Assembly: GCA_903911135.1 (NCBI GenBank)
Contig: CAIWCG010000194.1
Span: 1-58,516, forward strand
DNA from: an uncultured Bacteroidota bacterium
Lineage (GTDB): Bacteria > Bacteroidota > Bacteroidia > AKYH767-A > JABDAW01
Reading direction: 5' to 3'
DNA length: 58,516 nt
The notes under the pieces are model-generated. The model saw only the letters and a program-made list of their open reading frames with translations. It had not been told where the DNA came from and ran no database searches. Below, in pieces: positions 211 through 57,000 of this stretch. The position numbers and the translations under genes are program-made. Every line of letters starts with the position of its first letter. Within the stretch, counting starts at the first letter, position 1.

Positions 211-272
211 TCCTGTTAATTTATCGTTCGCCGTGTTAATCTTACCAAAGTTTGAAACTTTGACAAAGCTTA

Positions 273-403
273 TTCGAAGCTACCTGCCATCAAAGCATAG
301 CCCCGATAGTAGCGGCAGCCCGCTGCTTTGTGTCGGTAATGGGGATGCAGCGGCTACAGCGGATAGCGGGACGCAGATGGGACGAGAAGGAACCATAGGC
401 TCC
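273..403 (+). repeat. Conserved GC-rich ~130-nt intergenic element, copy E1 (possible structured RNA or MITE-like repeat)
   Basis: About 85-95% identical by eye to 31881-32011, 35652-35782 and the reverse complement of 35207-35338. Core is TTCGAAGCTACCTGCC..GATAGTAGCGGCAGCCCGCTGC..GCAGCGGCTACAGCGGATAGCGGGACG..ATAGGCTCC. An AT-rich AATTATAAAT tail follows. Confidence 0.85.
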
Positions 404-472
404 CTTAGAAATTATAAATGATGAATTATAAATTATAAATTGAGAGGAGCAGAGGAAATGAAATGGGGCTTA

Positions 473-4276: not shown

Positions 4277-4631
4277 TGCTTTTATTTTTTATTAGGCTGT
4301 AAAAATACAATTAATAGTCGAGAGTGGGGGCATCTACCACTTGAAATCATTCATCAAGATAAATAAATCTTAGCCATTTTTGATGATTTTCAAGAGATAA
4401 AAATAAACCTTGGTTGGCATTGTCGATTAATTTTCGTTAATTAGCCTCGATGAAAAACCAACGACTGGCTTTCTTAAACACCAAAAACTCAAATGCGATC
4501 TCTGACAAGGATTTCACTTCCGCTATGGCAGTAAAATCTCTTGCATCATGCGTTTGAGCGGGCCTATATATAACAGTATAGACGGTTTTTTTGGCTGCGC
4601 AATGGAGAGTGGCTCAAAAATAAAGGGCTTT

Positions 4632-4841
4632 GCGGCCGATATAAAGGTCTTAGCGATGATGATAATGGTTATTGCGGCGATGATAATGGGCATTGCGTCC
4701 GATGCTAAGGTTATTGCGTCGAACGCTAAGGTCATTGCGTTGAATGCTAAGGTTATTGCGTCCGACGCTAAGGTTATTGCGTCCGACGCTAAGGTTATAG
4801 CGTCCGACGCTAAGGGCTTAGCGTCGGACGCTATAACCTTT
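4632..4841. repeat. 21-bp tandem array (array 2), 10 units
   Basis: Units begin every 21 bp from 4632. Consensus is GCGTCCGACGCTAAGGTTATT with palindrome GCGTC-C-GACGC. The left three units are degenerate. Confidence 0.9.
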
Positions 4842-13941: not shown

Positions 13942-14118
13942 GTACTTTGAGTTCATGGGCGCGTACTTTGAGTTGCTTGGTACGTACTTTGAGTTGCTTG
14001 GTACGTACTTTGAGTTGCTTGGTGCGTACATTGAGTTCATGGGTACGTACTTTGAGTTGATGGGTAGGTACTTTGAGTTAATGGGCACGTACTTAGGCTT
14101 GCTTGGTGTGTACTTTGC
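13942..14118. repeat. 21-bp tandem array (array 3), about 8.4 units
   Basis: Consensus is GTACTTTGAGTTGCTTGGTAC. Unit junctions create the GTACGTAC palindrome. Lies upstream of the MBOAT operon. Confidence 0.9.
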
Positions 14119-17420: not shown

Positions 17421-17590
17421 AACTTATAAGTAATGTAACATAACTTATAAGTAACTGCCCCTAACTTATAAATAATGTTACTTAACTCATAAGTAACTGC
17501 CACTTACTTGTAAGTAACTGCCATAAATTCATAAATAACTGCCACAAACTTATGAGTAACTGCCATAAACTTGTAAGTAACTGCCATGGA
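17421..17590. repeat. 21-bp tandem array (array 4), about 8 units; degenerate traces reach about 17635
   Basis: Consensus is AACTTATAAGTAACTGCCATA with palindrome ACTTATAAGT. Lies upstream of ppk1. Confidence 0.9.
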
Positions 17591-17799
17591 TAGTATAGTA
17601 ATGTGTAAAGAAGGAATAGTAATTGCCACAAACCGTCTATTTCGGTAATTGAATCGTTTTATCTGATGATTATGACTAAATATTTCATTACGATATGTTC
17701 GATTATTGGCATCAAAAAACAAATCATAAAGACATTAAAAATGCCTTTAATGAAATCAATTATTGATGATGTTTGGAAATGATTTTATCTGAAACCGCA

Positions 17800-22501: not shown

Positions 22502-23746
22502 TTACTCCTTGATTATCTTTCCTCTAACGCTGGTTGGGATTTGCAATCCCGACCCTTTTACCTCATAAAAATAAATGCCACTTCTTAAATGCGAGATATC
22601 TATCGTCTCGGTGGCAGTGTTTAATGCTTGAGAATAAACCTTATTGCCCAACACATCGCTGATGATGATTTGCTGATTTGGGGAATAAGTATCTTGATGG
22701 ATAGTGATGGTGGAGGTGGTGGGGTTGGGGAAAATGGAAATAGTTTCTTTACTATTATTTACTTCACCTATTCCACTTGCTGAATTATAAAAAACCCATG
22801 CTGCTCCAAATCCATTACTATCATTTCTTCCTCCTTCAATAATCGTATGACCATCTGATGAGATTGCAACGCTCCATCCTTGGTATACACCATTACCACT
22901 ATTCACAGCTCCAGTTCCAATCAATTTACTTCCAAGTTGTGTCCAAATATTACTTGTTCTAGTGTAAATCCATACTGCACCAGTATTGCTATTGTCATTC
23001 AATCCACCAACAACTGCTGTATCTCCAGAATATGAAATTGAAACCGTATTACCTTGAGAAGAATTTCCTACAAAACCTGTACCTACCAATTTATTCCCTT
23101 GTTGTGTCCATACTCCTCCTGTTCGAGTATACATCCAAACTGCGCCAATACCACCACCATCCCCTTGCCCACCAATTATTGAAGTATTCCCATCTGAAGA
23201 AATAGCAACTGAATTACCTTGACCACTTCCAGCAGAGCTTGTACCAATAAGTTTATTTCCCTGCTGAGTCCAAACACCACTTGTTCGTGTAAATACCCAT
23301 GCTGCTCCTTCACTGTTATTATCTCCGCTACCACCAGATAGAATTGTATTTCCATCTGATGAAATTGAAATAGATGTACCTTGATGGGCAGCACCAATAG
23401 CACCTGATCCCACTAATTTATTTCCTTGTTGCGTCCAAATGCCACCACTACGAATAAATACCCATACAGCACCCATTCCACTGCTATCGCCCATACCTCC
23501 GACAATAGCTGTATTTCCATCAGCTGAAAGAGATACAGAGTAGCCTTGCCATGCAGAACCAATTGCGCCAGTACCTACTAATTTACTTCCTTGTTGAACC
23601 CAAACTCCAGAAGATCGAATGAAAACCCAAGCGGCACCAGTATAGCTGCTATCACCAAGTCCACCCTTTATCCGCTCCATTTTGCTAAGTGCTGGAAAAT
23701 ATTCTTTAAGGTTAAGGAAAATTTCTTTAAGGTTAAAGTGCTGCAC
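22502..23746 (-). CDS. Repeat-rich T9SS cargo protein, probably 5'-truncated (no signal peptide)
   Basis: About 47-aa repeats (GA.WVF.RSGGVWTQQGNKLVGTGA..QG.SVS.S.DGNT.IVGG.GD) plus a T9SS CTD (ISIFPNPTTSTITI..GIYFYEV). The ORF begins in the middle of a repeat, and its first ~15 codons lie inside array 5. Confidence 0.65.
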   Translation of the reverse strand: MQHFNLKEIFLNLKEYFPALSKMERIKGGLGDSSYTGAAWVFIRSSGVWVQQGSKLVGTGAIGSAWQGYSVSLSADGNTAIVGGMGDSSGMGAVWVFIRSGGIWTQQGNKLVGSGAIGAAHQGTSISISSDGNTILSGGSGDNNSEGAAWVFTRTSGVWTQQGNKLIGTSSAGSGQGNSVAISSDGNTSIIGGQGDGGGIGAVWMYTRTGGVWTQQGNKLVGTGFVGNSSQGNTVSISYSGDTAVVGGLNDNSNTGAVWIYTRTSNIWTQLGSKLIGTGAVNSGNGVYQGWSVAISSDGHTIIEGGRNDSNGFGAAWVFYNSASGIGEVNNSKETISIFPNPTTSTITIHQDTYSPNQQIIISDVLGNKVYSQALNTATETIDISHLRSGIYFYEVKGSGLQIPTSVRGKIIKE

Positions 23747-23894
23747 TTTAACCTTAAGGATTATTTCTTTAAGCCTAATAATTATTCCATTTAGGTTAAG
23801 AAATATTCCATTAAGGTTAGGAATTATTCCAATAAAGTTAAGAATTATTCCAATAAGCCTAAAGAAAATTCCATTAAGACTAAAGAAATATTTC
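23702..23894. repeat. 21-bp tandem array (array 5), about 9 units
   Basis: The right-hand five units are exactly 21 bp (for example ATTAAGGTTAGGAATTATTCC) and contain the palindrome GGAAT-T-ATTCC. Left units are more degenerate. Confidence 0.85.
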
Positions 23895-31441: not shown

Positions 31442-31729
31442 GTTAGGTTTCAACTGTAACGTGACGGTATTGGACTCTGTTGCCACGAACTTGGGTTTCG
31501 TTCGAACGAACTCCAGGTTTGTTGCCAACAGTTGGAGGTTTCAGACCAAGTTAGAGCATTTTGTTGCCTTGGAAACCAGTTTCGTTCGAACGAACTCCGG
31601 CTGTGTTGGAACGAACCCAAAACCTGTCGCGACAATGTTCCAGCGTACGCGACAAACCCCGGCACCGTCGCAACAGAATCCAACTTCGTTCCAACGAAAC
31701 CCAAGTTCGTTGGAACAGAGTTGAACTTC
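31442..31729. repeat. About 21-bp tandem array (array 6), 13-14 units, with overall dyad symmetry
   Basis: Units start with palindromes GTTCGAAC, GTCGCGAC or GTTGCCAAC. The right arm (about 31667-31729) is close to the reverse complement of the left arm (about 31476-31530). Confidence 0.85.
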
Positions 31730-31880
31730 AAGGCAAGGTATTTTGAGGTATTTTAAACGGAATTGGAGCGTATTGAAAGAATTAATGGATTGGTGACGAT
31801 GGGATAATGGCAATTGGCATTTTGTTATTTTTATTGGCATGAGCCTTTTCGCCGCAGCCAGGTATTATTCAAAAAGTTGT

Positions 31881-32011
31881 TTCGAAGCTACCTGCCATCA
31901 AAGCATAGCCCCGATAGCAGCGGCAGCCCGCTGCTTGGTGTCGGTATTGGGGATGCAGCGGCTACAGCGGATAGAGGGACGTAGATGGGACGAGAAGAAA
32001 CCGTAGGCTCC
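31881..32011 (+). repeat. Conserved ~130-nt element, copy E2
   Basis: Same core as E1. The tail is AAAAAATTAGGAATTAGGGATT and abuts the next gene. Confidence 0.85.
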
Positions 32012-32103
32012 AAAAAATTAGGAATTAGGGATTTTTCATGTTTCTTTTAGATGGAAATAGTACCTTTGCAGCCTTAACACGGATTAATAACAACAAAAAA
32101 AAT

Positions 32104-34223: not shown

Positions 34224-35183
34224 ATGACAAACAAGAACTTTTTACTCATAGATACCATACATCCCCTGTTTGTTCAAGGCTTGCTGAAGCTTGGATATAA
34301 CTTGGTGGATGGTACCCTCTGGACGAATGAAAAGGTATTGGATGAGCTTCCTACTTTCACCGGCATATTGGTGAGGAGCAAAATAACTTTGGATGAAAAC
34401 TTCTTCCATAAAGCCACGAATTTGAAATTCATTGCAAGAGCCGGTGCAGGCATCGAGCATATTGACATCAACGAAGCCAAGAAAAGAAACATCCACCTGA
34501 TTACTGCCCCAGAAGGCAACCGAAATGCTGTTGCCGAACATGCGCTTGGCATGCTGCTGAACCTGATGAACAACCTGAACAAGGCCGACCGTGAAATTCG
34601 TGAAGGGAAATGGCTAAGAGAAGACAACAGGGGTACCGAAATTCATGGCAAAACCATCGGCATCATCGGGTTTGGAAACACCGGCCAGAGCTTCGCCAAG
34701 AAATTCATCGGCTTCGAAACGCCAGTCATCGCCTACGACAAATATGTCGAGGTAAATGCCAGCCACGTCACCTCCGTTTCCATGGAGCAGCTCTTCGAAC
34801 AGGCCGACATCGTCAGTTTCCACATCCCCCTCACCACGGAAACGAATGATCTCGTCAACGATGAATTCTTGAGTTCATTCAAGAAAAATAGCTACCTCAT
34901 CAACACCTCCAGAGGCAAGATTCTGAACACAAAAGCCCTCGTCAAGCATATGAAATCAGGCAAGATTCTTGGTGCAGCCCTCGATGTAATCGAATACGAA
35001 AACCAAAGTTTCGAGTCGCAAGCCAGCATAGCCGACCAAGAAACCTACGGCTATCTGCTGGCCAGTCCACGCGTACTCCTCACGCCACACATAGCAGGAT
35101 GGACGCACGAATCCTATCGTTTAATAGCCGAAGTGCTCCTCGAAAAAATCGCCAACCTTGCCCTCCCTCCCCTCCCTCCCTAA
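34224..35183 (+). CDS. D-isomer-specific 2-hydroxyacid dehydrogenase (phosphoglycerate dehydrogenase-like)
   Basis: 319 aa. NAD motif GIIGFGNTGQ and catalytic region LTPHIAGWT. Confidence 0.9.
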   Translation: MTNKNFLLIDTIHPLFVQGLLKLGYNLVDGTLWTNEKVLDELPTFTGILVRSKITLDENFFHKATNLKFIARAGAGIEHIDINEAKKRNIHLITAPEGNRNAVAEHALGMLLNLMNNLNKADREIREGKWLREDNRGTEIHGKTIGIIGFGNTGQSFAKKFIGFETPVIAYDKYVEVNASHVTSVSMEQLFEQADIVSFHIPLTTETNDLVNDEFLSSFKKNSYLINTSRGKILNTKALVKHMKSGKILGAALDVIEYENQSFESQASIADQETYGYLLASPRVLLTPHIAGWTHESYRLIAEVLLEKIANLALPPLPP

Positions 35184-35206
35184 TTTCTAATTCCTAATTC
35201 TTTTAA

Positions 35207-35338
35207 GGAGCCTATATCCTCCACACGTATCAAGGTGCGTCCCGCTATCCGCTGTAGCCGCTGCCTGCCCATTTCCGACACAAAGCAGCGGGCTGCCGCT
35301 ACTATCGGGGCTATGCTCTGACGGCAGGTAGCTTCGAA
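35207..35338 (-). repeat. Conserved ~130-nt element, copy E4 (inverted orientation)
   Basis: Its reverse complement matches the E1-E3 core. The segment between GGGACG and ATAGGCTCC is replaced. The tail is AATTAGGAATTAGAAATTA. Confidence 0.85.
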
Positions 35339-35420
35339 ACAACTTTTGGCAAAACGGACCATTTTCAAGGTGAAATTCTTTCATGCCGTTTAAAAAACAC
35401 TTATTTCCGGTTTCCGACCT

Positions 35421-35614
35421 ATATGACGGACGATGCGGCTTATATCACGGACGATGCGGATGATATGACGGACGATGCGGATGATATGACGGACGATGCG
35501 GATGATAGTACGGACGATGCGGATGATAGTGCGGACGATGCGGATGATAGCACGGACGATGCGGATGATAGCACGGACGATGCGGCTTATATCACGGATG
35601 ATCCGTCTTATAGG
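35421..35614. repeat. 21-bp tandem array (array 7), about 9 units
   Basis: Consensus is TATGACGGACGATGCGGATGA. The first and last units carry GCGGCTTATATCACGG variants. The last unit has the palindrome CGGAT-G-ATCCG. Confidence 0.9.
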
Positions 35615-35651
35615 TAGAAACGACTGTTTTTTAATTTCGGCTGAAAGTTTA

Positions 35652-35782
35652 TTCGAAGCTACCTGCCGTCAAAGCATAGCCCCGATAGTAGCGGCAGCCC
35701 GCTGCTTTGTTTCGGAAATGAGGAGGCAGCGGCTACAGCGGATAGCGGGACGAAGATGGGACGAGAGGAGGATATAGGCTCC
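35652..35782 (+). repeat. Conserved ~130-nt element, copy E3
   Basis: Same core as E1, with the same AATTATAAAT-type tail. Confidence 0.85.
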
Positions 35783-35840
35783 ATTTAGAAATTATAAATT
35801 ATGGATTATAAATTATGAATGGGGGAGGACGAGGAGGGAT

Positions 35841-36710
35841 TTAGTTGACGTCGAGCAAAAAACACTCTCTGAATTTGCTCATGCCTCCCCATTCTTCGAA
35901 TAGTTTTGAGGTGATGGCGTTGATTTCTTCGATGGTCTTGGGCTTGCGGTCGCCGCTTTTTGGGAAAACGAAATAGATGATGCCGTCGGCTGCACCGCCT
36001 TTTTTGATGTCGGAATTTACGCCCAAGGCATTTGCCAAGGCTATCGAGCCTTCGCCGATTTTGTCGATGGAGGAGATGTCGGCAAAGATGGCGTTGATGA
36101 ATCGGTGGTTCTTTTTGTTGTAAATCATGCCCATGTCGCCTACGGTTATGTCGGCGGCATTGATGACTTCCGGCGGCAATACGAAGTATGGAATCTTCTC
36201 CGAATTGACATATCGGCGTGGGTTCTTTATGTCGAAAGTTTTGTCTATGAGGCTGGTGGTGGAGACGAAATATCCTGGGGCGGGGTCCTTTTCGTTTTGC
36301 AGAACCGGGTTGCCATCGGCCATGTTGTTGTCCGTCACCACCCCGAACCAATTGCCCGGTTTGCCTGCATTTTTATTGTTGTCGAGTCCTGTGTTCATTG
36401 GATGAAAGGCATGTGGCGAACCATCGGCATCTATCTTCATTCCGGTCTCAAAATATACGACGTTGGTGGTATTGAATTTTATTACCGGCACTGCCTGTAC
36501 CCGAAGCAGTTCGGTGTTGTCGCATGGGTTGTTGCTGACTTTCTTGTATGGGGTAAGGTTGGCTTTTGCAATCCTGTTGGCATTGTCGTCGCTCAAGAAA
36601 TTGCATCCTGTCAGCCATAATATGGTGGAAAGGAAAAACACTTTTCCTATGCCTTTCAAGCAGTTGTGGATAGTTGTATTGCTGATTTTTTCCATTCCTT
36701 TAATAAACAA
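35841..36710 (-). CDS. Lipoprotein, possibly glycoside hydrolase family 75 (chitosanase)-like
   Basis: 289 aa. Lipobox LWLTGC. KIDADGSPHAFHP, YFVLP and GDMGMIYN..FADIS..GEGSIALANALG resemble GH75 from memory only. Confidence 0.5.
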   Translation of the reverse strand: MFIKGMEKISNTTIHNCLKGIGKVFFLSTILWLTGCNFLSDDNANRIAKANLTPYKKVSNNPCDNTELLRVQAVPVIKFNTTNVVYFETGMKIDADGSPHAFHPMNTGLDNNKNAGKPGNWFGVVTDNNMADGNPVLQNEKDPAPGYFVSTTSLIDKTFDIKNPRRYVNSEKIPYFVLPPEVINAADITVGDMGMIYNKKNHRFINAIFADISSIDKIGEGSIALANALGVNSDIKKGGAADGIIYFVFPKSGDRKPKTIEEINAITSKLFEEWGGMSKFRECFLLDVN

Positions 36711-42618: not shown

Positions 42619-42644
42619 GTCTCCCCAACATCTGTCGGAGAGAC
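42619..42644 (-). terminator. Rho-independent terminator (minus strand), probably the ancestral terminator of the 113-aa gene
   Basis: Minus-strand hairpin GTCTCTCC-(10 nt)-GGGGAGAC followed by TTATTGTTTTATT. Confidence 0.65.
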
Positions 42645-42670
42645 TTTCATGAATCTTTACCTCTTCCCTC

Positions 42671-42815
42671 CTACGGCACCGGACTATCTATATAAGTCAT
42701 GAATCCTTCACCACAAGTTTTCAAGGGGTCGGCGATGACGAACTTGGTGGAGGGGAGGATGTGCAAGGTCTCCTTGCTTTCGGAGTGTTCTTTGCAGAGG
42801 GGGAGGATGTATATG
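42671..42815 (-). pseudogene. Start-less 3' fragment, a displaced copy of the C-terminal ~48 codons of the 48109..48450 gene
   Basis: 42642-42815 aligns with 48081-48258 at roughly 90% identity by eye, including identical runs of 34 and 48 bp. There is no upstream coding continuation. Confidence 0.8.
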
Positions 42816-42854
42816 GTCAGGTCTTTGGGTCTGGATATTTTATCTAAACAATAT

Positions 42855-42975
42855 TTGAGGATACCATTAAACCCTACTTCTCTTATGCCAGAAAACCTGT
42901 GGCAATCTGGATTTCTAATTGGATAATAGTTGATTGGAGGATATGAAAATCCTTAATAGTTTATCCACAGGATGT
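42855..42975 (-). repeat. Cassette-junction repeat R1 (hairpin part conserved, promoter part degenerate)
   Basis: ..CATTAAACCCTACTTCTCTTATGCCAGAAAACCTGTGGCAATCTGG..AATTGGATAATAGTTGATTGGAGGA.. aligns with R2-R4. Confidence 0.75.
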
Positions 42976-42995
42976 AACTTTGGATTGAAAGCAGG

Positions 42996-44414
42996 TTATT
43001 CTTCCTTTTTCTTTTCGATAAAAACCCTGAAATGATAGTTAGCATCAATTTTCTTTTGGTACTCCTCCAAAATCATTTCATAAGTCAAACCGAAATCAAA
43101 TTCAGCAATGACACCTTCAATATATGGTTGTGGATCAAATCCGGTATTATGACAATAAATAAGCAATCCTTCGCAGGCAAAGAAGATTCGATTGGCAATT
43201 TCCTCCAAGATTTCACCTTCCAGCATCAATTTCCTTCTTTTAGGATTGTTTTCATCCACTTCTCCTGTTATTTTCCCTTCGGCAAGAAGATCTCCCATGA
43301 TAAAATAATTCCTGGCATCGCGATCATGGATAAAGAAGAGAAGAAAAGGCAACACAGACATTTTATGAAACCATTTCATGAATGTTTCACTGCTTTTCCA
43401 GTCATCCTCTTGCAGTATCAAGGTACTGCCTGCTATCTCCTCAAAAATGAACTCAAAGGCAAAAAGGCTTTTTTCTATCAGTAGTGGAAAATGCTGTAGG
43501 GCAAGGACTATTTCTTGAAATGAACTTTGCTCTTCCGCTTCTACGGCTGCAACAAGAACATGGATATTGGGAGTATGAGTCATCAAATTGCAATATTTTT
43601 TAAGAAAATCCATGTTCTTATAGATAACCTTATCACCAGGCAGCAGAAAATATTTCGGTCTTCCGGGTGCATCCAATATATCCTTAAAACTATCAGAAAG
43701 AGATGTATCCAAAAGATATTCTCCTAACAGTATGGTGTCTGTCATGGTCGATAATTCCTTCCAAAGTGCATACGATTCCCCCACAATTCCCATCAGGTCA
43801 TTATATCTATCCATGATATCGTTGCAGGTTTGGGTATGGTCGTCGCCATCAATATTATCCCTACTGTGATGTCTGCTGTATAAGTGATAATCTTTCTTGA
43901 AAGATTCCTTGTCAAGCGATAAATCTTCCATCTTGTCAATCATTATATCCCTGTTTTTGTAAAAACTCATGTAATCATCGTGGAACGCATCATAACCCAT
44001 CACATATTCTTCCCTTACAGTTCCATAATGTGCCATTTCATTGCCAAGCTTATCGATATGATTCTCATGAAAAGGGGTTATTTTCTCAAAAAGCTTATCT
44101 CTGTCAGCAATCAATTTATTGGTTGCCATCTTAGAAGTTGTGCGTTCGGCAACCAATTGTTTTGCTCTTGAATGATACGCTTCAATTGCTTCAGCAATAG
44201 GCTCAAATGCAGATTTTGCCAGTGAAACATGTTGGTCCAGTTCATTGAATATGTTCAATAGATTTTCCCGTTCAGGATAAAACCTGATTATATAATCATG
44301 AAGTTTGATATATTCTTTCAATAGGTCGATTTCAAATTCCTGTTCCAGCTTTTCATCGTCATACCTCAACACTATCGGTTTCAAAGGATGAGGAATTATT
44401 TTCTCTATCAGCAT
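42996..44414 (-). CDS. Hypothetical protein, orphan cassette gene
   Basis: 472 aa from the ATG at 44414; the track ORF uses an upstream TTG inside repeat R2. I recognised no motif. Acidic and helical. Confidence 0.65.
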   Translation of the reverse strand: MLIEKIIPHPLKPIVLRYDDEKLEQEFEIDLLKEYIKLHDYIIRFYPERENLLNIFNELDQHVSLAKSAFEPIAEAIEAYHSRAKQLVAERTTSKMATNKLIADRDKLFEKITPFHENHIDKLGNEMAHYGTVREEYVMGYDAFHDDYMSFYKNRDIMIDKMEDLSLDKESFKKDYHLYSRHHSRDNIDGDDHTQTCNDIMDRYNDLMGIVGESYALWKELSTMTDTILLGEYLLDTSLSDSFKDILDAPGRPKYFLLPGDKVIYKNMDFLKKYCNLMTHTPNIHVLVAAVEAEEQSSFQEIVLALQHFPLLIEKSLFAFEFIFEEIAGSTLILQEDDWKSSETFMKWFHKMSVLPFLLFFIHDRDARNYFIMGDLLAEGKITGEVDENNPKRRKLMLEGEILEEIANRIFFACEGLLIYCHNTGFDPQPYIEGVIAEFDFGLTYEMILEEYQKKIDANYHFRVFIEKKKEE

Positions 44415-44427
44415 GTCTTTATTTTTT

Positions 44428-44500
44428 TGCAAAGATACACATTAAACCCCACTTCTCTAATGCCGGAAAACCGGTGACAAGATGGGGTGTTAATGGAATT
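44428..44500 (-). repeat. Cassette-junction repeat R2
   Basis: TGCAAAGATACACATTAAACCCCACTTCTCTAATGCCGGAAAACCGGTGACAAGATGGGGTGTTAATGG. It overlaps the HEPN stop codon. On the minus strand it supplies TATCTTTG 15 nt before the next ATG. Confidence 0.85.
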
Positions 44501-44897
44501 CAGATGTAATGTTCATTTTCTTATGAACAAAATCTCTTATGTTTTTTGCAATTAGTATGGCATTGTTCGTTTCTGCCTCCGTTAATTCAATGGTAGTTTC
44601 AGGGTATCTGATTTCAACTGCATAATCTGCGAGTTCCATAATGCTGACAATCATGATTTCGTCTATTGATTCTTTGGCATTTATAAGTTCCAGCAGATAA
44701 ACCAAATCATGAGTTCTTCTAAACTCCACTTTCAAATAGATAAGATAGGCCTTTAAGTATTTTTCGACTGCCTGCTGGCAGTGAAATGCCGTTACATGAC
44801 GGTATTCTGGGATATGCATTTGTATAACCAATGCAGTACCCAAATCTTCATCTCCTTTCTCCACCCATTTCCTTATGATATCCATTTTATCGTTCAT
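44490..44897 (-). CDS. HEPN domain toxin (HepT-like)
   Basis: 135 aa. R-x4-H motif in EFRRTHDLVYL. Overlaps the upstream MNT gene by 11 nt. Confidence 0.8.
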   Translation of the reverse strand: MNDKMDIIRKWVEKGDEDLGTALVIQMHIPEYRHVTAFHCQQAVEKYLKAYLIYLKVEFRRTHDLVYLLELINAKESIDEIMIVSIMELADYAVEIRYPETTIELTEAETNNAILIAKNIRDFVHKKMNITSEFH

Positions 44898-45201
44898 ATA
44901 AAGTAGTACAGTTTTTCATTGCAGACGATAAGAATGAATAAGGATTCAGCAAGTCATCATTAAATTCTGATGGGGTATAAACCTTTAAGTCCATTGGTAC
45001 AAAAGAACCGAATAAATATTTTCTTACCTCCCGACCGCGACTTTGTTTTGGAAGGTCGGTATCCTTAATCACAATCAAATCCAAATCACTGTCCTCATTA
45101 GGAGTTCCATTGGCATAAGAACCAAATAAAATCACCTTTTCAGGCGCATAATTCTGAACTATCTTATTGACAATTTCAGTGATTTTTTCCTTTTTAATCA
45201 T
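44887..45201 (-). CDS. Minimal nucleotidyltransferase antitoxin (MntA-like)
   Basis: 104 aa. Motif LFGSYANGTPNEDSDLDLIV (GS..DxD). Confidence 0.8.
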   Translation of the reverse strand: MIKKEKITEIVNKIVQNYAPEKVILFGSYANGTPNEDSDLDLIVIKDTDLPKQSRGREVRKYLFGSFVPMDLKVYTPSEFNDDLLNPYSFLSSAMKNCTTLYER

Positions 45202-45225
45202 AACTGATTTTTTTATTTATCTGAA

Positions 45226-45345
45226 TGCAAAGATACACATTAAACCCTACTTCTCTAATGCCGGAAAACCGGTGACAAGATGGGGGGTTAATTGGATTAT
45301 TGGTGATTGGAGGAAATATAAGTCCTTAGTTTATCAACCTATAAG
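45226..45345 (-). repeat. Cassette-junction repeat R3
   Basis: Same sequence as R2, plus the extension AATTGGATTATTGGTGATTGGAGGAAATATAAGTCCTTAGTTTATCAAC shared with R1. Confidence 0.85.
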
Positions 45346-45371
45346 CCCTGAAATCCAATAAGACTAAACAG

Positions 45372-45752
45372 TTATTTTATTGTATAGCTTGGTTTGTTTG
45401 GATGCATCGGATTTGGCATCAGCTTTTGGGTGGCAGGATGAACGACTAAATCCATATCTTCCATAGGCACAGCCCCAAGCAATGTTTCATCACCAATAAC
45501 TAGAGCCCCAACAAAACAAAATCGGTTCTCAAAGTCAACCCGTATAGGGCCTACATAAGGAACCTGATGCGAACTGCCATCAGCTATGGTAACAGGGCGT
45601 TTATCCAATTCCTCCAGCTCCAATTGATAGGCCACAGATTGTGGAATGCACAACATTAATGCGCCGGTATCTACCAATGCATCTATTTCAACGGGCAATA
45701 GTGAGGCATTGCGCGGATTACTAAGTTTTATCTTTGAATAGGTTAAGCCCAT
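45372..45752 (-). CDS. Retropepsin-like (clan AA) aspartic protease, stand-alone
   Basis: 126 aa. Catalytic ALVDTGA, and the later ILGAVPMEDMDLVV-type segment typical of bacterial single-domain retropepsins. Confidence 0.7.
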   Translation of the reverse strand: MGLTYSKIKLSNPRNASLLPVEIDALVDTGALMLCIPQSVAYQLELEELDKRPVTIADGSSHQVPYVGPIRVDFENRFCFVGALVIGDETLLGAVPMEDMDLVVHPATQKLMPNPMHPNKPSYTIK

Positions 45753-45792
45753 TGTATTATTTGTTAAGAAACTTCTCTAGAATTTTTAAGAA

Positions 45793-45880
45793 TGCAAAGA
45801 TACACATTAATCCCTACTTCTCTAATGCCAGAAAACCGATGGCAAGCTGGGGTGTTGATTGGATTATTGGGGATTGTAAG
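45793..45880 (-). repeat. Cassette-junction repeat R4
   Basis: TGCAAAGATACACATTAATCCCTACTTCTCTAATGCCAGAAAACCGATGGCAAGCTGGGGTGTTGATTGGATTATTGG. It overlaps the last codons of the HNH-like gene. Confidence 0.85.
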
Positions 45881-46543
45881 AATTAGATTTTCTTTTACAC
45901 ATTTCAAAAGCTGTGAAGAACTGATTAACTGCAAATTCTTCATAAGGTTTATCTGTCAATTTAGTTTGCTCTATAATCGGTTGTATTATACCCTTTCTAT
46001 TTGCAATGATTGTTGGGTGATTAATTCCTAAAGTTTCAAGCATTTTAGTAACTCTTTCTTTATCATTTGGCGACAAATCGGGATTTGGGATAAAAATATG
46101 TTCCTTTTCATAATAGAAGAGTAATCTAAACTCATCATATTCAGGCTCATCAGGTTTAAGTATGTAATCAACCTCTTTTCTCCCCTTAACTTTAGCAGAA
46201 TTAACATCGGAATGAATCATAAATAAATTAGACCATAACCAAGCTTTACTTGCTTTTAAGTTAGGATCAAAATGATCTAATTCACCAAATGATTTATCTT
46301 CTCCTTCAAAACAATAACATCCATCTTTCCAATTTAATGTTTCATAAAATATCTCATCACATAATAAAGATTCTGTGTAAGCACAAACACCTTTTTGGCA
46401 ATAGAATAGACTCATCACAACATCTTTGTAAAACTTGTTGTTGATGAATTATATACTCCATGATTTCTATCATCATTTTCAAGTACTTCTTCCCAAGATT
46501 TGTATTGAGTAGATTGAACAACAGACTTATCAATTTTCCTCAT
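45864..46543 (-). pseudogene. ptuB: PtuB-like HNH (TIGR02646-type) nuclease gene, apparently split by a frameshift near 46415-46425
   Basis: The 184-aa ORF (45864..46418) has CAYTE, ELDHFDP, WSNLF and a LETLGINHPTIIANRKG-type tail. A 42-aa ORF (46415..46543) starts 3 nt after the ATPase stop and reads like the missing N-terminus, but in another frame. Confidence 0.55.
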
Positions 46544-47911: not shown

Positions 47912-48108
47912 TTTAACGTATTTACTATTATAAGATTCGCAAAACTAACAAAATTTATCCATAAAATTTATAGCATTTTTTATCTTTGAAGATACTGGTG
48001 CAATTTATAAGGCATGCTTTTGACTCTAAAATCTGAAAACATTTTTAAACCAATAATCAATATTATATCAATTTCAAATGACTTTCTTAAATCTTTACTC
48101 ATTCCTCC

Positions 48109-48450
48109 CTACAGCACCGGACTATCCACATAAGTCATGAATCCTTCGCCACAAGTTTTCTTGATGTCGGCGATGACGAACTTGGTGGAGGGGAGGATGT
48201 TCAAGGTCTCCTTGCTTTCGGAGTGTTCTTTGCAGAGGGGGAGGATGTAGATGGTGGAATCTATGGGTTTGGTTTGCAAATCCAAACCATCCAGTTTATG
48301 AACATGCGTCCCTACGATGTCCACCTTGCCACATCCTGCCACCACGCAGCCTGTTATCTGGCGGAAGCTGAAGTTCTTGTAATGCTGAAACCAGTTGCCG
48401 CATCTACAATTCTTTTCTGTCGGCTTACTGCTGATTTTTACTTCTATCAT
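48109..48450 (-). CDS. Small Cys/His-rich protein, possibly a zinc-binding HNH-like fold
   Basis: 113 aa. Has CRCGNW..H, GCVVAGCG, VGTHVH and ILPLCKEHSE. Its 3' third is duplicated at 42671-42815. Confidence 0.6.
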   Translation of the reverse strand: MIEVKISSKPTEKNCRCGNWFQHYKNFSFRQITGCVVAGCGKVDIVGTHVHKLDGLDLQTKPIDSTIYILPLCKEHSESKETLNILPSTKFVIADIKKTCGEGFMTYVDSPVL

Positions 48451-48522
48451 TGTGTTTATTTTTATTATTGTTTCTCATTTTGTTAATCCCTTTTTATGCT
48501 TGATTATGCCTTTTTGACAAAG

Positions 48523-48761
48523 TTTGAAGGAATCTTTACATTCCTTCAAACAATGTCAACATTGTTTGAAGAAGTCCTTACATTCCTTCAAGGTATGTGA
48601 ACATTGTTTGAAGAAGTCCTTGCATTCCTTCAAGGTATGTAAACATTGTTTGAAGAAGTCCTTGCATTCCTTCAAGGTATGTAAACATTGTTTGAAGAAG
48701 TCTTGACATTCCTTCAAACAATGTCAACATAGTTTGAAGATATCCTTACATCCCTTCAAAG
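48523..48761. repeat. 42-bp tandem array (array 8), about 5.7 units
   Basis: Units start at 48523, 48565, 48607, 48649, 48691 and 48733. TTGAAG..CTTCAA and AAACA-T-TGTTT inverted repeats. The terminal units differ from the three inner units. Confidence 0.9.
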
Positions 48762-48781
48762 TTTCGTCTTTTAGCTAATTT

Positions 48782-51041: not shown

Positions 51042-54000
51042 ATGGAAACTACCATTTACTCAACGTCAAACAAAGGTGTAACAAGGTCTTTGATGATTAC
51101 GATGACCTTCGTACTTTTACTGTTCAGCGCCAACCAAAGTGCTGCCTGGACGCAAACGTATCAGATTTCGTCGTCAAATCAATTGCTTTATTGCTATTCC
51201 AATTGCGGACCTGATTCCTATTACGGAGCATCAGAAGGAGGCGATATAGGCTTTACCTGGAATGACAATCTGGGGTTTGGAGTGAATATCAGTTCCATAA
51301 CCATTCGATTTAGAGTAGGTATGGAGTGCAATTGGGGAGATAAAAGCACCACGATGAATGGCAATTATGCAGGCATGTTTTCTACTACAGATAATTGCGA
51401 TTGTTCGCTTTCCATAGATCCAATCTTTACCCTTAACCCAAATCCGGGTGATTATGTAATAGGGGGTGCCAATACTTTTTTAGTAACCAACCTTCAAAAT
51501 AACTTTGGCTTTTTTATGGATAATGATACGCTTGGCGGTTATGCAATGATAACGGTTGAATATACTCAATCGCCATTCATCTCCAGCTATTCTACAAACA
51601 GTGCCTGTATTGGAAACAACATCATTATTCATGGTACAGGTTTGGCAAATGTCAATTCGGTAATGTTTTTTGATAATGTAGCAGCAACTATCCTATCCAC
51701 CGATGCAACAAGCGTTATAGTAGAAGTTCCATCGGGTGCTACCTCCGGTCCCATCACTGTTTCTAATCCTGACGGAAATTATGTAGGAGGTGATTTCTAC
51801 ATCAATGGAACGGCACCAATAATAACCTGTCCTAACGGGCAGGTACTTTATTCAGGTCAAAACGATTGCCAAGTTGAAGCAACATTCGATGGAATGACCT
51901 CAGATGGAGTGGTAACCTATATTTATAATTCCAATTACATCAGTTCTCCATATTTCTTTCCCATTGGGCAAAATATGGTAGAAATGAATGTGATGACGGG
52001 CAATTGTAATATTGCATGCTTTTTCAATATCTCCGTTCTCGATACCGTTCTTCCAATACTGACACCCTGCCCATCCGATGTGGTGCAGGCATGTGCAGGA
52101 ATCATTTCTTATGAGACGCCCACTGCTACAGATAATTGTTCGATTAGCATGGCAGCAAGTGTTACTTATGCCTATACCGGAACACAACAATCTTGGACCG
52201 TGCCTCAAGGATTAACCAATATTCAGGTTGACCTTAGCGGTGCTCAAGGAGGAGGTACACAGTTTGGCAGCGATGGCGGAGCAGGCGGACGAGTAACCGC
52301 TACACTACCAGTAAATGGAGGGCAGATACTATATATATATGTAGGTGGAGCGCCAACGGATAATTCCGGTGGATATAATGGCGGAGGCGGTTGTTATGGA
52401 AACGGATATTCAGGTTCTGGAGGTGGAGCCTCAGACATCAGATTCGATAGTCCTGATTTAGGCAATAGAAGGATTGTTGCCGGTGGTGGAGGTGGATCAG
52501 GAGCAAATTGTAATTCATCGGACGAATGGGGTGGAGCTGGTGGTGATTTAATAGGTCAGACTGGTTACCAATGTGGCGGTAATTGTTGTTACACTGGCAC
52601 AGGAGGAACTCAATATTCAGGAGGTTATGACCAATATGGTTATGGTGCTTCAGGAGCATTTGGTAATGGAGGAAATGGTATTTGGGATGGCGGCGGCGGC
52701 GGTGGTGGTTTTTATGGTGGTGGTGGTGGAAGCTACGGCGGTGGCGGTGGCGGTAGCAGCTATACCGATCCATCTGCAATGAATGTTGTCCACACACAAG
52801 ACTATCAGGTTGGTAATGGTTATGTTATCATAAATTATAATCAAGCCTATCCTACCGTTACCCAAACATCCGGCTTGCCATCAGGTTCCTTCTTCCAAGC
52901 TAATGTAACGACCAATACTTTTGTAGCATCCGATCAATCAGGTAACACGGTTGCATGTTCTTTTAATGTAACAATAGATGATATTACTCCTCCAGTTATT
53001 GCTGGTTGTCCTGACGATATATATTTAGCATGCCCTGGTGTTGTTGATTATTTCCCACCAACAGCATCTGATGATTGCGATTCGGTTTTAGTTTATCAAG
53101 CGGGAGGTTTGGCTCCAGGCTCTAATTTTGTAAATGGAGCAACTATCAATACTTTTATTGCAATGGATGCCACTGGCAACACATCACAATGCTCATTTAC
53201 GGTAACAGTAAGTGACTATACCCCTCCTGTAATATTTGATTGCCCAGGTGATGTTGTTTCCTCTTGTCCAACAACTGTAGATTTTAATCCTCCAACAGCT
53301 TCAGATGATTGCAATGATGTAAATATCCAACAAACAATAGGATATGGTTCAGGTTATTATTACACAAGTGGGGTTTCTGTTAATACCTTTGTGGCAATAG
53401 ACGGATCTGGGAATACTGCTGAATGTACCTTCACGGTTACAATATCAGATGTCGATGCTCCTGAATTTACAAGTTGCCCGACCGACATTACCATGGCTTG
53501 TCCCGATGTAGTTTCGTATGATATCCCAACAGCTACCGATGCATGCATCTATTTAACAATAGTGCAAACTTCCGGACTTGTTTCTGGTTCTTTCTTCCCA
53601 AATGGAATCACAACAAATACCTTCCAAGCTACTGATGGATCAGGAAACACATCAGTTTGTACTTTTAATGTTTCCATTGATGATTCCACTCCTCCAGAAA
53701 TTGCAGGCTGTCCAGCCGATACTGTTATGTCATGCCCAGGAATCATTAATTTCAATATGCCAACAGTGTCAGACAATTGTACCTCTTCTGCAAACGGAAG
53801 CATAACATTTTCCTATACTGGAATAATTGAGAACTGGATGGTTCCTAATGGTGTTCCTACAGTAACAATTACAGCGCTCGGAGCCCAAGGAGGTCAGAGC
53901 AGCGGAGGTTCAGGAGGATTAGGTGCAAGTATGACAGGTATGGTTTCGGTTACTTCAGGTGAATCATTAAAAATCTTGGTTGGCCATCAGGGCTATTACG

Positions 54001-57000
54001 GAACACAAGGTGGTGGTGGTGGTGGTTCTTTCGTGACAGATAACAGTAATAACCCATTGGTAATTGCCGGTGGTGGTGGTGGTGGATATAATGGAGGAAG
54101 TTCCAGTTATTCAGCAAATGCAAATGGATCAATTTATACACAAGGAAATTCTGGTGTTTATGGAAGTGGAAATACTTATGGGGGAGCAGGTGGAACAAAC
54201 GGTGGTGGCGGAAATTGCTCCCCTCAATTTGGGAGTTCAGAAGGATCTGGTGGTGGTGGACTTATTGGCAACGGTTCAAATTGTTATGGGACAACAGGCG
54301 GGTACTCTTTTGTAAATGGTGGTGCTGGAGGTTCAGGAAATGGAAGTGGAGGAGGCGGAGGATTTGGTGGCGGTGGCGGTGGCGATTGGTATTATTGGAC
54401 AGGTGGTGGCGGTGGCGGTGGTTATTCTGGTGGTGGTGGTGGCACGTACTATGGTGTTGGTGGCGGAGGCGGATCATTTAATGCTGGCACCAACCAAACC
54501 AATAATGCAGGTGTAAATCCCGGCAATGGTTTGGTAATAATTTCATGGAATAATACATATCCAATGATTTCACAAACATCTGGATCACCTTCAGGTACCT
54601 TTATTGTAGCAAATACAACAAATACTTTTACGGCAATAGATGGCTCTGGCAATACATCTATTTGTTCATTTAATATAACTGTTAATGATAACACACCTCC
54701 TGTATTCGCTAATTGTCCTGCCGATATTATTTTATCTTGTCCTGGTAATGTGGATTATATTACTCCAACAGCTACCGATGATTGTGCCATTGTTAATGTG
54801 GAACAAACTGCTGGTTTGCCAACAGGATCATATTTTGCAAATGGAGTTATGATCAATACTTTTTTAGCAACCGATGCAGCTGGCAATACGTCTGTTTGTA
54901 CTTTTTCAGTAACGGTGAGTGATTACACTCCACCAGTAATTTCAAATTGTCCAACAGATTATGTTTTATCATGCCCTGGAGTAGTTGAATATACCACTCC
55001 AACAGCGTCTGATGACTGCATTATTGTTAATATTGAACAAACAGTAGGTTTGCCTACAGGTTCTTTTTTCCCAAATGGGGTTACTATAAATACGTTTGTT
55101 GCAACAGATGGATCGGATAATACTTCTGAATGTTCATTTTCTGTATCTATCAATGATAATGTCCCTCCCGTAATTGCTAATTGCCCAATAGATTCTGTTA
55201 TGTCATGTCCAGGAATAGTTAATTTCAATATTCCAACTGTGTCAGATAATTGTTCTTCAAATATAAATGGCAGCATTACTTTTAACTATTCAGGTTCAAT
55301 CGTAAGCTGGATTGTACCTACAGGAGTAACATCTGTTTCAGTATTGGCATTAGGTGGTCAAGGGGGTAGTGCAAGCGGAGGAGTTGGTGGATATGGTGCA
55401 AGTATTATTGGAACTTTTAATGTAACGCCTTCGGATAATATTCAAATACTTGTAGGACAACAAGGTGGAAACAACGTCGTGAATCAATATTATCGTGGTG
55501 GTGGTGGCGGAGGGGGCAGTTTTGTTTATAATTCTTCTTCTTCCACTCTGATGTTAGCAGCAGGTGGTGGTGGTGGTGCCGGACAATATGGATATGGAAG
55601 TTCTGTCAATTCTGATGCATCAATAACAACTAATGGAAAGTCTGGATATAATGGTGGCTTTGGCGGTTCATCTGGTAATGGAGGTGGAGCATCTTCTTAT
55701 GGTAGCGGCGGAGCTGGTTGGAATTCTAATGGTAACAATAGCGGTTACTCAACAGGAGGTTCAAGGTTTCATGGTGGTGGATCAGGTGGAAACGGGTATT
55801 CTGATGGTGCCAATGGTGGCTTTGGCGGCGGTGGTGGTTCTTATGCTGGTGCTGGTGGCGGAGGTGGCTATTCAGGTGGCGGAGGCGGTGGATGGTCTTA
55901 TTCAGGTTACGGAGGCGGAGGCGGTTCTTATAATGGAGGAACAAATCCTATAAACACTGTAGGAGTCAATAGTGGAAATGGTTTGGTTGTTATTTCATGG
56001 AGTAATGTTTTTCCTAATATAACACAAACTTCTGGATTGGCATCAGGTTCATACTTTGCAAATGGAATTACAACGAATACATTCATTGCAGAAGACGGAT
56101 CAGGTAATACAGCGTCTTGTTCTTTTATAATAACAGTGAACGATGTAACTCCTCCTGAACTTTTCAATTGCCCATCTGATATTTCTGTTTCCTGCCCTGG
56201 AATAATAATATTTGGTTCACCAATAGCGAATGATGATTGTGGCGTTGCTACTGTCGAGCAAATTATTGGGTTAGTATCAGGAACTATTTTCCCTTCTGGA
56301 ACAACTGAAGTTATGTTTAGAGCAACTGATGGATCAAACAATACTAGTACTTGTTCATTTAATGTAATTGTAGATGTTGATAATACCCCACCAACTATTG
56401 TTGGTTGCCCATCAGATCTAACAGTTAATTGTTCAAATATTGTTTCATTCGTTCCGCCAACAGTTACAGATAATTGTAACAATATTTCTTTGTCTGGAGG
56501 AAGTCAAACCTTTAATTATACAGGCACAATACAACACTTTACTGTTCCAGCAGGAGTTACATCAGTTAATCTTGATGCTTTTGGTGCCCAAGGGGTTGCA
56601 GTAGGCATGTATTCAGGAAATGGTGGAGAAGCAAAAGGTACAATGGCCGTTATTCCTGGACAGGTTTTGAATGTATTTGTGGGAGGACAAAATTTATTTA
56701 ATGGAGGTGGAACAGGTTATCATGGTGCAAATGGAGGTGATGCAACCGATATCAGATATCCTTCAACATCTATGAATGACAGAGTAATAGTTGCTGGCGG
56801 CGGCGGCGGAGCTGGTGGAGATAATTGGATATGTCAAAGTGGGGTAGATGGAAGTGGTGGTGGCGGAATTGCTGTGGGGCAAAATTTTGTCGGAGGATCT
56901 GGAGGTAGAGGTTATGCATTTTGTGGAACATCTGGAGGCACGAATGGTGGCACATCAGGCAATTCCTATCATGGTGGTGGTGCAGGTGGCGGTGGGCTAA

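Follow-up and report, generated by a model that had tools for sequence, protein, structure and literature searches.

A stretch of 58,516 nt from an uncultured Bacteroidota bacterium (GenBank assembly GCA_903911135.1, contig CAIWCG010000194.1; hereafter the window) contains a D-2-hydroxyacid dehydrogenase gene and a GH75-like gene that converge on a gap of 657 bp. This gap consists entirely of repeat DNA (Table 1). Two copies of a terminal module, E4 on the minus strand and E3 on the plus strand, face outward toward the two genes, and a tandem array of 21-bp units (array 7) lies between them, separated from each by a spacer. Repeat search and TRF place E4, the array and E3 where the original prediction had put them, filling the space between the convergent genes. 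The predicted order of the parts holds, but the left spacer measures 66 nt and not 83 (E4 ending at 35354), and the array has 8.7 units with degenerate edge units, not nine. Handles of the form L081 denote the contigs and loci with which the window was compared.

Table 1. Positions of the repeat features and neighboring genes (window coordinates unless a contig is named)
Feature	Position	Strand	Remarks
Intergenic tandem arrays (eight)	1-176, 4620-4840, 13942-14117, 17421-17601, 23697-23892, 31474-31721, 35421-35602, 48522-48762		Period 21 or 42; own unit in each
E1 with heptamer tail (405-441)	260-441	+	42-bp array (1-176) lies 84 nt to the 5' side; tail abuts 3' end of a thioesterase gene
Array 6, spacer, E2	31474-32035	+	Array 31474-31721 degenerate, in two inverted halves; spacer with half F hairpin; E2 31868-32011 with short tail
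D-2-hydroxyacid dehydrogenase gene	34224-35183	+	Stop codon 35181-35183
C-rich tract CCCTCCCTCCCCTCCCTCCC	35160-35183	+	Complement of the G-rich outer tract of E4; in the dehydrogenase frame
E4 heptamer microsatellite tail	35181-35206	-	TAATTTC TAATTCC TAATTCT (plus strand), three heptamers
E4, terminal module with Flavo-1 hairpin	35207-35354	-	Rfam match 35234-35316, 51.9 bits (gathering score 42)
Left spacer, 66 nt	35355-35420		Both ends are inverted copies of the right spacer
Array 7	35421-35602	+	TRF: period 21, 8.7 copies, 91% matches; consensus ATATCACGGACGATGCGGATG
Junction palindrome ACGGATGATCCGT	35595-35607		Last direct unit joins an inverted copy of the array's left edge
Right spacer, 36 nt	35603-35638		
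E3, terminal module with Flavo-1 hairpin	35639-35782	+	Rfam match 35674-35756, 55.1 bits
E3 heptamer microsatellite tail	35783-35822	+	AATTATA/AATTATG type, period 7/14; five heptamers; TRF 35791-35817
G-rich outer tract GGGGGAGGACGAGGAGGGA	35823-35839	+	Ends 1 nt short of the GH75-like stop codon
GH75-like gene	35841-36710	-	Stop codon 35841-35843
Module H	L090 706-860		
Module H	L092 1346-1500, 5570-5740		
Module H	L125 500-680	-	Reverse strand

The island is symmetrical over most of its length. Its core inverted repeat, recovered by repeat search, pairs 35238-35346 with 35644-35752 over 109 nt at 94% complementarity, in agreement with the earlier description of the two arms as inverted repeats of each other, and a weaker outer pair joins 35181-35228 to 35761-35808. 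When the two halves are aligned, the symmetry runs from the C- and G-rich tracts (35160-35183 mirroring 35823-35839) through the heptamers, E and the spacers up to the array edges (ACCTATAnGACGGA on both sides), for a total of about 270 nt. The sole large difference between the arms is a stretch of 34 nt in the middle of the left spacer that has no counterpart on the right. The symmetry is centered on the palindrome ACGGATGATCCGT, located where the array ends on the right, and the array unit holds an 8-bp palindrome of its own, TGATATCA. Folding of the whole unit, which the original prediction had proposed, gave -217 kcal/mol for positions 35155-35845 as single-stranded DNA, compared with -90.7 +/- 5.6 kcal/mol for shuffled sequences (z = -22).

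The island also forms part of a gene. The last codons of the dehydrogenase and its stop codon come from the element: the C-rich tract encodes PPLPP, and the TAA lies in the first heptamer. Homologues of the dehydrogenase stop at ..KLNL, 5-6 residues before the window protein, and PPLPP is not conserved. E4 overlaps this coding end on the antisense strand. Read in the orientation of E, the heptamers of the E4 tail are of the AATTAGR type, and a relative of 97% identity carries heptamers of another type, AACTCAT, at the same dehydrogenase 3' end (L086, 10951-10982). On the plus strand as well as the minus strand, the two heptamer tails of the island supply stop codons in all three frames.

The same structure is present in two other, independently made assemblies of this organism (L081 and L082), and the island is therefore not an assembly artefact. 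In L081, array 7 is two units shorter and everything else is identical. As predicted for an expandable repeat, the copy number of the array differs between near-identical assemblies.

The E module is the already described Flavo-1 motif (RF01705), a point that the original prediction missed. The covariance model is covered in full by all four copies in the window, with the matches of E1, E3 and E4 spanning model positions 1-76. E3 scores highest (55.1 bits), followed by E1 (52.5), E4 (51.9) and E2 (41.8), against a gathering score of 42; the orthologue of E2, which falls just below that score, reaches 52.6 bits in L086. The core of each copy therefore fits the model over its full length, with scores that reach or closely approach the gathering score, and the host is likewise of the Bacteroidota, the closest homologues and the 97%-identity relative being Bacteroidota MAGs. 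E differs from Flavo-1 in what surrounds the hairpin. At about 145 nt it is longer than the motif, with about 35 conserved nt on the 5' side of the hairpin (..AAAGTTnTTTCGAAGCTACCTGCC..) and about 40 nt on the 3' side (..GACGAGAAGnnACCATAGGCTCC), and approximately 60% of E copies are followed by a heptamer microsatellite with a G-rich tract, flush against the neighboring gene. By contrast, in Flavobacterium swingsii a standard Flavo-1 copy, located upstream of metG, consists of the hairpin alone, without extensions, tail or arrays, and five seed sequences in the 2010 supplement, read by eye, have no flanking arrays. A literature search found no report that ties Flavo-1 to tandem arrays or mosaic islands, and an exact search of IMG/VR with the E hairpin gave no match.

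The association between E and the arrays extends well beyond this locus. Scanning JGI metagenome contigs with a pattern for the E hairpin yielded 37 contigs, with copies 85-93% identical to E3. After removal of duplicate loci, an array was counted when its period was 21 or a multiple of 21 and it lay no more than 300 nt from E. By this measure, an array is present on the 5' side of 24 of the 35 distinct copies and on the 3' side of none of 27 (Fisher p = 5e-9; background frequency 0.107). The physical tie between E and the arrays noted at the outset is therefore general. Part of the asymmetry is due simply to the position of E, at the margin of the intergenic region and followed by a gene. All four E copies in the window are preceded on the 5' side by a tandem array: E1 by array 1 (1-176), E2 by array 6, and both E3 and, on the other strand, E4 by array 7. 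Among the genes that adjoin an E tail, 17 are convergent and 11 co-directional, and E is therefore not confined to gene ends of one kind. A search for further composites of the form E(-)-array-E(+), also suggested by the original prediction, identified them at about six other loci (L100, L106, L110/L123, L119, L122 and, over 2.3 kb, L114). Islands with E at one end outnumber those with E at both ends, and the spacer between array and E varies in length from 18 to more than 300 nt.

The fixed polarity of E and array could be that of a transcript. In such an RNA gene, the array would serve as a locus-specific 5' domain (a guide, sponge or decoy made of 21-nt units) and Flavo-1 as a shared 3' handle that aids stability, processing or the binding of proteins. 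The placement of arrays 5' of E and never 3' of it fits this proposal, as do the 21-nt units with their frequent potential for hairpins. Flavo-1 was found by comparative genomics with covariation reported and no function assigned (Weinberg et al., 2010; PMC2864571), and Rfam classes it as an sRNA gene; the reported covariation also speaks against treating E as a DNA repeat, since it fits a role as RNA. Among 32 copies compared here, none of the 28 predicted pairs showed a double change, the stem being invariant, partly as a result of the exact search pattern, so that these copies carry no information on the structure. Conversely, two-ended islands carry E on both strands, and one transcript cannot end in E twice. 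A Bacteroidetes -7 box pointing through the array toward E occurs in only one of 14 one-ended islands, the array-E spacer has no set length, E4 lies antisense over a coding 3' end, and many arrays have no E at all (five of the eight in the window). In Flavobacterium psychrophilum, Flavo-1 is not consistently transcribed: matches are sense or antisense to transcribed regions, and many fall in untranscribed DNA (PMC9723704). In addition, exact 19-21-mers of three array units, searched as protospacer-like targets, had no match in IMG/VR. An RNA gene is thus an unlikely account of the islands.

The arrays themselves are a lineage feature. The window holds eight in 58.5 kb, or about one per 7 kb, and a relative of 66% identity holds two in 21 kb, whereas 1.27 Mb from 80 genomes of other Bacteroidota contained a single comparable array. 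The arrays examined comprise 33 distinct units with no common motif, and their periods are all 21 or 42. Palindromes are enriched within the units: the longest averages 6.9 compared with 5.3 +/- 0.3 after shuffling, a mean that 0 of 1000 shuffles reached, and palindromes of 8 bp or more occur in 13 of the 33 units where 5.4 would be expected. Array units are often hairpin-forming. The units lie head to tail without spacers, and a check for CRISPR found no cas domains among the neighboring genes. Arrays are often closed by an inverted copy of their own unit, which creates a 40-nt palindrome at one end (for instance at 4749-4840 of the window, in the arrays at 23697-23892 and 48522-48762, and in L095 and L114).

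Several origins for the arrays were considered and set aside. Derivation of the 21-bp unit from heptamers would leave a periodicity of 7, and autocorrelation at lag 7 is absent (0.255 against a baseline of about 0.25). Polar growth of the array from the E side was rejected because unit-identity profiles are sharp on both borders and show no convincing asymmetry. A coding role fared no better: the arrays have between zero and three open frames per strand without favoring either strand, and array 4 lacks an open frame altogether. This bears directly on array 7, whose 64-aa open reading frame (35423-35617) spans the array exactly, is annotated by gene callers and would encode a small peptide of TDDADDM heptad repeats. 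The predicted peptide has no Pfam match, any stop-free 21-nt unit gives such a frame, and the units of the different arrays are unrelated in sequence, all of which makes a peptide-coding function extremely improbable.

Since one period of 21 bp recurs across unrelated units, ordinary slippage does not explain it, and neither does the RNA-gene reading or the mosaic-island reading favored below. The constant period could instead reflect a dedicated molecular-ruler system, in which an enzyme acting at Flavo-1-type ends would cut with a 21-bp stagger. Such an enzyme might be HUH-, integrase- or Cas1-like, and each cycle would duplicate one unit, so that a private array would form from the local sequence. 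Alternatively, the arrays could be expressed as chains of 21-nt units that share Flavo-1 as a handle. That the islands arise in either of these ways is judged quite unlikely.

E is one of several modules that make up the islands. F is a perfect hairpin (GGYTGCGGCGAAAAGGCnnnGCCTTTTCGCCGCARCC) that many E copies have on their 5' side, always equally far from E. Its occurrence beside E in L105, L115, L116, L119, L121 and L123 (CGGCGAAAAGGCnnnGCCTTTTCGCCG) constitutes a 'long form' of E. Only the 3' half of F is retained at E2 in the window (F site 31849-31862), and the Flavo-1 copy of F. swingsii has a loop with GGCTTTTCGCCG, which resembles half of F. Copies of another hairpin, G (GGTCTGGATTTGCAAATCCAGACC), also lie between E and the array; in L103 (6433-6556) and L120 (705-846) G is tandemly repeated there with periods of 30 to 46 nt. 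Module H, a conserved outward-pointing element of about 165 nt with internal hairpins and a heptamer tail of its own, occupies the array edge opposite E at several loci with one-ended islands (Table 1). An Rfam search of F, G and H returned no match. The modules can also replace one another: E' in L095 (20-170) takes the place of the E of L122 (3078-3221), with shared termini, a different hairpin core and surroundings that are 93% identical.

This exchange bears on the claim of the original prediction that the 576-bp unit is a single non-autonomous mobile element carrying its array. As a MITE-like or foldback-like transposon, E(-)-array-E(+) would move whole, with the E copies as terminal inverted repeats (TIRs) and the array as an expandable interior. 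The composite does have terminal inverted repeats, in the form of its core arms, and its long inverted arms reach the array edges and fold strongly. The element is flush with the stop codon on either side and takes the place of one gene's end, the contig of the 97%-identity relative breaks at the element, and composites recur. Moreover, one 660-bp block occurs both in L094/L116 and in L126, where the copies are about 85% identical. It runs from a G-tract and heptamers through E, F, a spacer and the array to a terminator-like hairpin, and its flanks have no similarity on either side, even at the protein level. A shared block in two unrelated contexts is what a mobile composite would look like. 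However, this interior, common to L116 and L126, is the sole shared one; elsewhere the interiors differ at each locus, as do the array units. No direct repeat that could represent a target-site duplication was found outside the G- and C-rich tracts, either in the window composite or in the other composites inspected. The GC content of the composite is about 50%, and it is not AT-rich.

The relationships among E copies point the same way. In four of six composites, the two partner copies rank only 12th to 26th of 36 in mutual similarity; they are each other's nearest relatives only in L122, and those of the window rank 3 and 5. Concerted evolution of the two arms was considered for such pairs; it is seen in L122 and, weakly, in the window, but in no other composite. 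Most islands have E at one end, and H and E' can stand in for E. The array can likewise occur on its own: L125 and L107 share an array family together with about 10 nt on each side, and L125 has H and E whereas L107 has neither. Thus, both whole blocks and bare arrays are found in more than one context, and the evidence does not fit a single transposing unit. The original prediction had named independent acquisition of arms and array as the finding that would tell against it, and the replacement of E by H or E' and the related array of L107 come close to that outcome. Together with the 33 private units, the lack of target-site duplications in the composites inspected, the distant partner copies and the interchangeable ends, they leave the claim of one mobile unit unsupported and lead us to regard a MITE-like transposon as improbable.

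Comparison with related genomes was sought as a source of empty sites. All same-species assemblies carry the element, the contig of the 97%-identity relative ends at it, and the 66%-identity relative has a different gene order and is not syntenic with the window; a scan of GTDB genomes gave no relative closer than 57% identity, and exact-protein look-ups yielded same-species contigs and the 97%-identity relative alone. Four contigs (L109, L124, L102 and L113) match at 97-99% identity as far as the 3' part of E, beyond which their flanks differ, a pattern due either to recombination involving two copies of E or to chimeric assembly at the repeat.

Inverted repeats around a segment of about 290 bp are also the layout of Bacteroidota invertons, in which the two E copies would serve as recombination sites and the array would flip its orientation. 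Yet the arrays of the window, L081 and L082 share one orientation, no recombinase gene lies within about 10 kb, and most islands have one E only. Both neighboring genes are convergent and therefore leave a promoter flip without a target. An inverton is very improbable here.

With about even confidence, the 576-bp unit is best explained as belonging to a family of mosaic intergenic repeat islands specific to this lineage, with E as a terminal DNA module of REP-like kind and the array as an unstable minisatellite. Each island comprises a private minisatellite of 21-bp, sometimes 42-bp, units and a conserved terminal module that faces outward at one or both edges. The commonest such module is E, built around the Flavo-1 hairpin; F and G can lie between E and the array, and H and E' can act as substitutes. 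E would be a hairpin-forming DNA repeat of the REP/BIME kind that has spread and been exchanged among intergenic regions, via either a host enzyme or recombination between copies. The array would grow and shrink in place by slippage or unequal exchange, probably after being seeded at local palindromes with the help of the hairpin-rich surroundings. Action at the level of DNA is favored because E occurs on either strand relative to its neighbors, overlaps a coding 3' end and forms outward-facing pairs, and because it is exchanged with other modules at one site and rarely has a promoter directed toward it. A search for open reading frames with HUH/Y motifs (Y1/RAYT-like) found none in the sequences examined, which are fragments and not a whole genome; such genes are usually single-copy.

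The window contains other repeats besides the islands. A repeat of about 113 nt lies upstream of each of four consecutive small minus-strand genes at 42820-45930 (near 42842, 44417, 45215 and 45782), among which is a HEPN/nucleotidyltransferase pair. This repeat holds a hairpin (TGCCACCGGTTTTCCGGCA) and a Bacteroidetes-type -7 box (TATCTTTG), and the region is possibly an array of cassette-like genes under one type of leader. It is bracketed by a direct repeat of 211 nt, 85% identical between 42642-42852 and 48080-48290, the two copies being 5.4 kb apart. Positions 52000-58516 are part of a very large repeat-protein gene with 234-nt (78-aa) HYR-type repeats and glycine-rich blocks; in the 66%-identity relative, the homologue is 3791 aa long and carries a Por secretion tail (T9SS cargo).

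Flavo-1 is among the most abundant families of bacterial sRNA and has been an orphan since 2010. It is now found in a defined and polar setting, the outward-facing end of repeat islands, which points to a REP-like role at the level of DNA. The constant 21-bp period of arrays with private sequences implies that something sets the ruler and leaves room for something new. If a ruler system or the expression of 21-nt units proved true, it would represent a kind of array formation undescribed in bacteria and would give Flavo-1 a function. In practical terms, the islands break metagenome assemblies, create spurious small open reading frames and change the 3' ends of real genes.

Parts of the islands resemble known repeats to different degrees. 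Intergenic heptamer repeats have been described in Bacteroidetes, Cyanobacteria and Beggiatoaceae (TAACTGA; PMC4679880), where tandem 7-nt units in variable number also lie at start or stop codons. The island heptamers differ in being of the AATTATA, AATTAGG and AACTCAT types and in being joined to the 3' end of E or H. The REP, BIME and REPIN elements of E. coli are mosaics of alternating hairpin repeats split by short motifs; they are common between convergent genes, and their clusters can be reiterated in tandem with flanking DNA (PMC3733652, PMC3116915, PMC6006769). E is REP-like in the same sense, being a hairpin unit with many intergenic copies, inverted pairs and mosaics with other motifs. 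However, at about 145 nt it is four to five times longer than a REP unit of 20-40 nt, and its GTAG lies inside GATAGTAGCGG and not at the stem foot, where REPs carry their GTAG/CGTC tag. The inverted E copies are about 290 nt apart, whereas those of BIMEs are separated by 10-100 nt, and BIMEs have no private 21-bp arrays. Subclass 2.6 of the Y1 transposases is specific to Bacteroidetes and is associated with atypical REP-like structures (PMC6006769). By analogy, this subclass is a lead to the source of an enzyme for E, although the REP table of the same paper lists no Flavo-1-like sequence.

Conserved short repeats also bracket variable internal units in the intergenic NIMEs of Neisseria, and in this the islands and NIMEs agree. 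There, dRS3 inverted repeats of 20 bp surround variable RS units that belong to limited families, and the elements are thought to act through recombination. The islands differ from NIMEs in the length of the terminal module and in their long 21-bp tandem arrays, which the few families of RS units do not form.

In layout, the islands also resemble the BOX (A-Bn-C) elements of pneumococcus and Streptococcus suis (PMC3049150), a comparison that the original prediction drew for pneumococcal BOX and one that describes the layout well. In both, two end modules enclose tandem repeats whose copy number varies, the entire unit folds as a stem-loop, the sites are intergenic and at gene ends, and no clear target-site duplication is seen; BOX elements also lack a clear empty site (PMC3049150). 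Like the islands, BOX elements of S. suis have alternative end modules, the larger boxE and boxF of 115 and 133 nt (PMC3049150). The differences lie in sequence and in host. The islands, whose end module is Flavo-1, have no apparent sequence similarity to BOX elements, and they belong to Bacteroidota and not to streptococci. Their ends are often inverted copies of one element. Finally, boxB is a single sequence family at all loci, whereas each island array has its own unit. By the tests run, the composite is not a MITE; it has a BOX-like layout and departs from BOX in replacing one family of internal units with a private unit at each locus.
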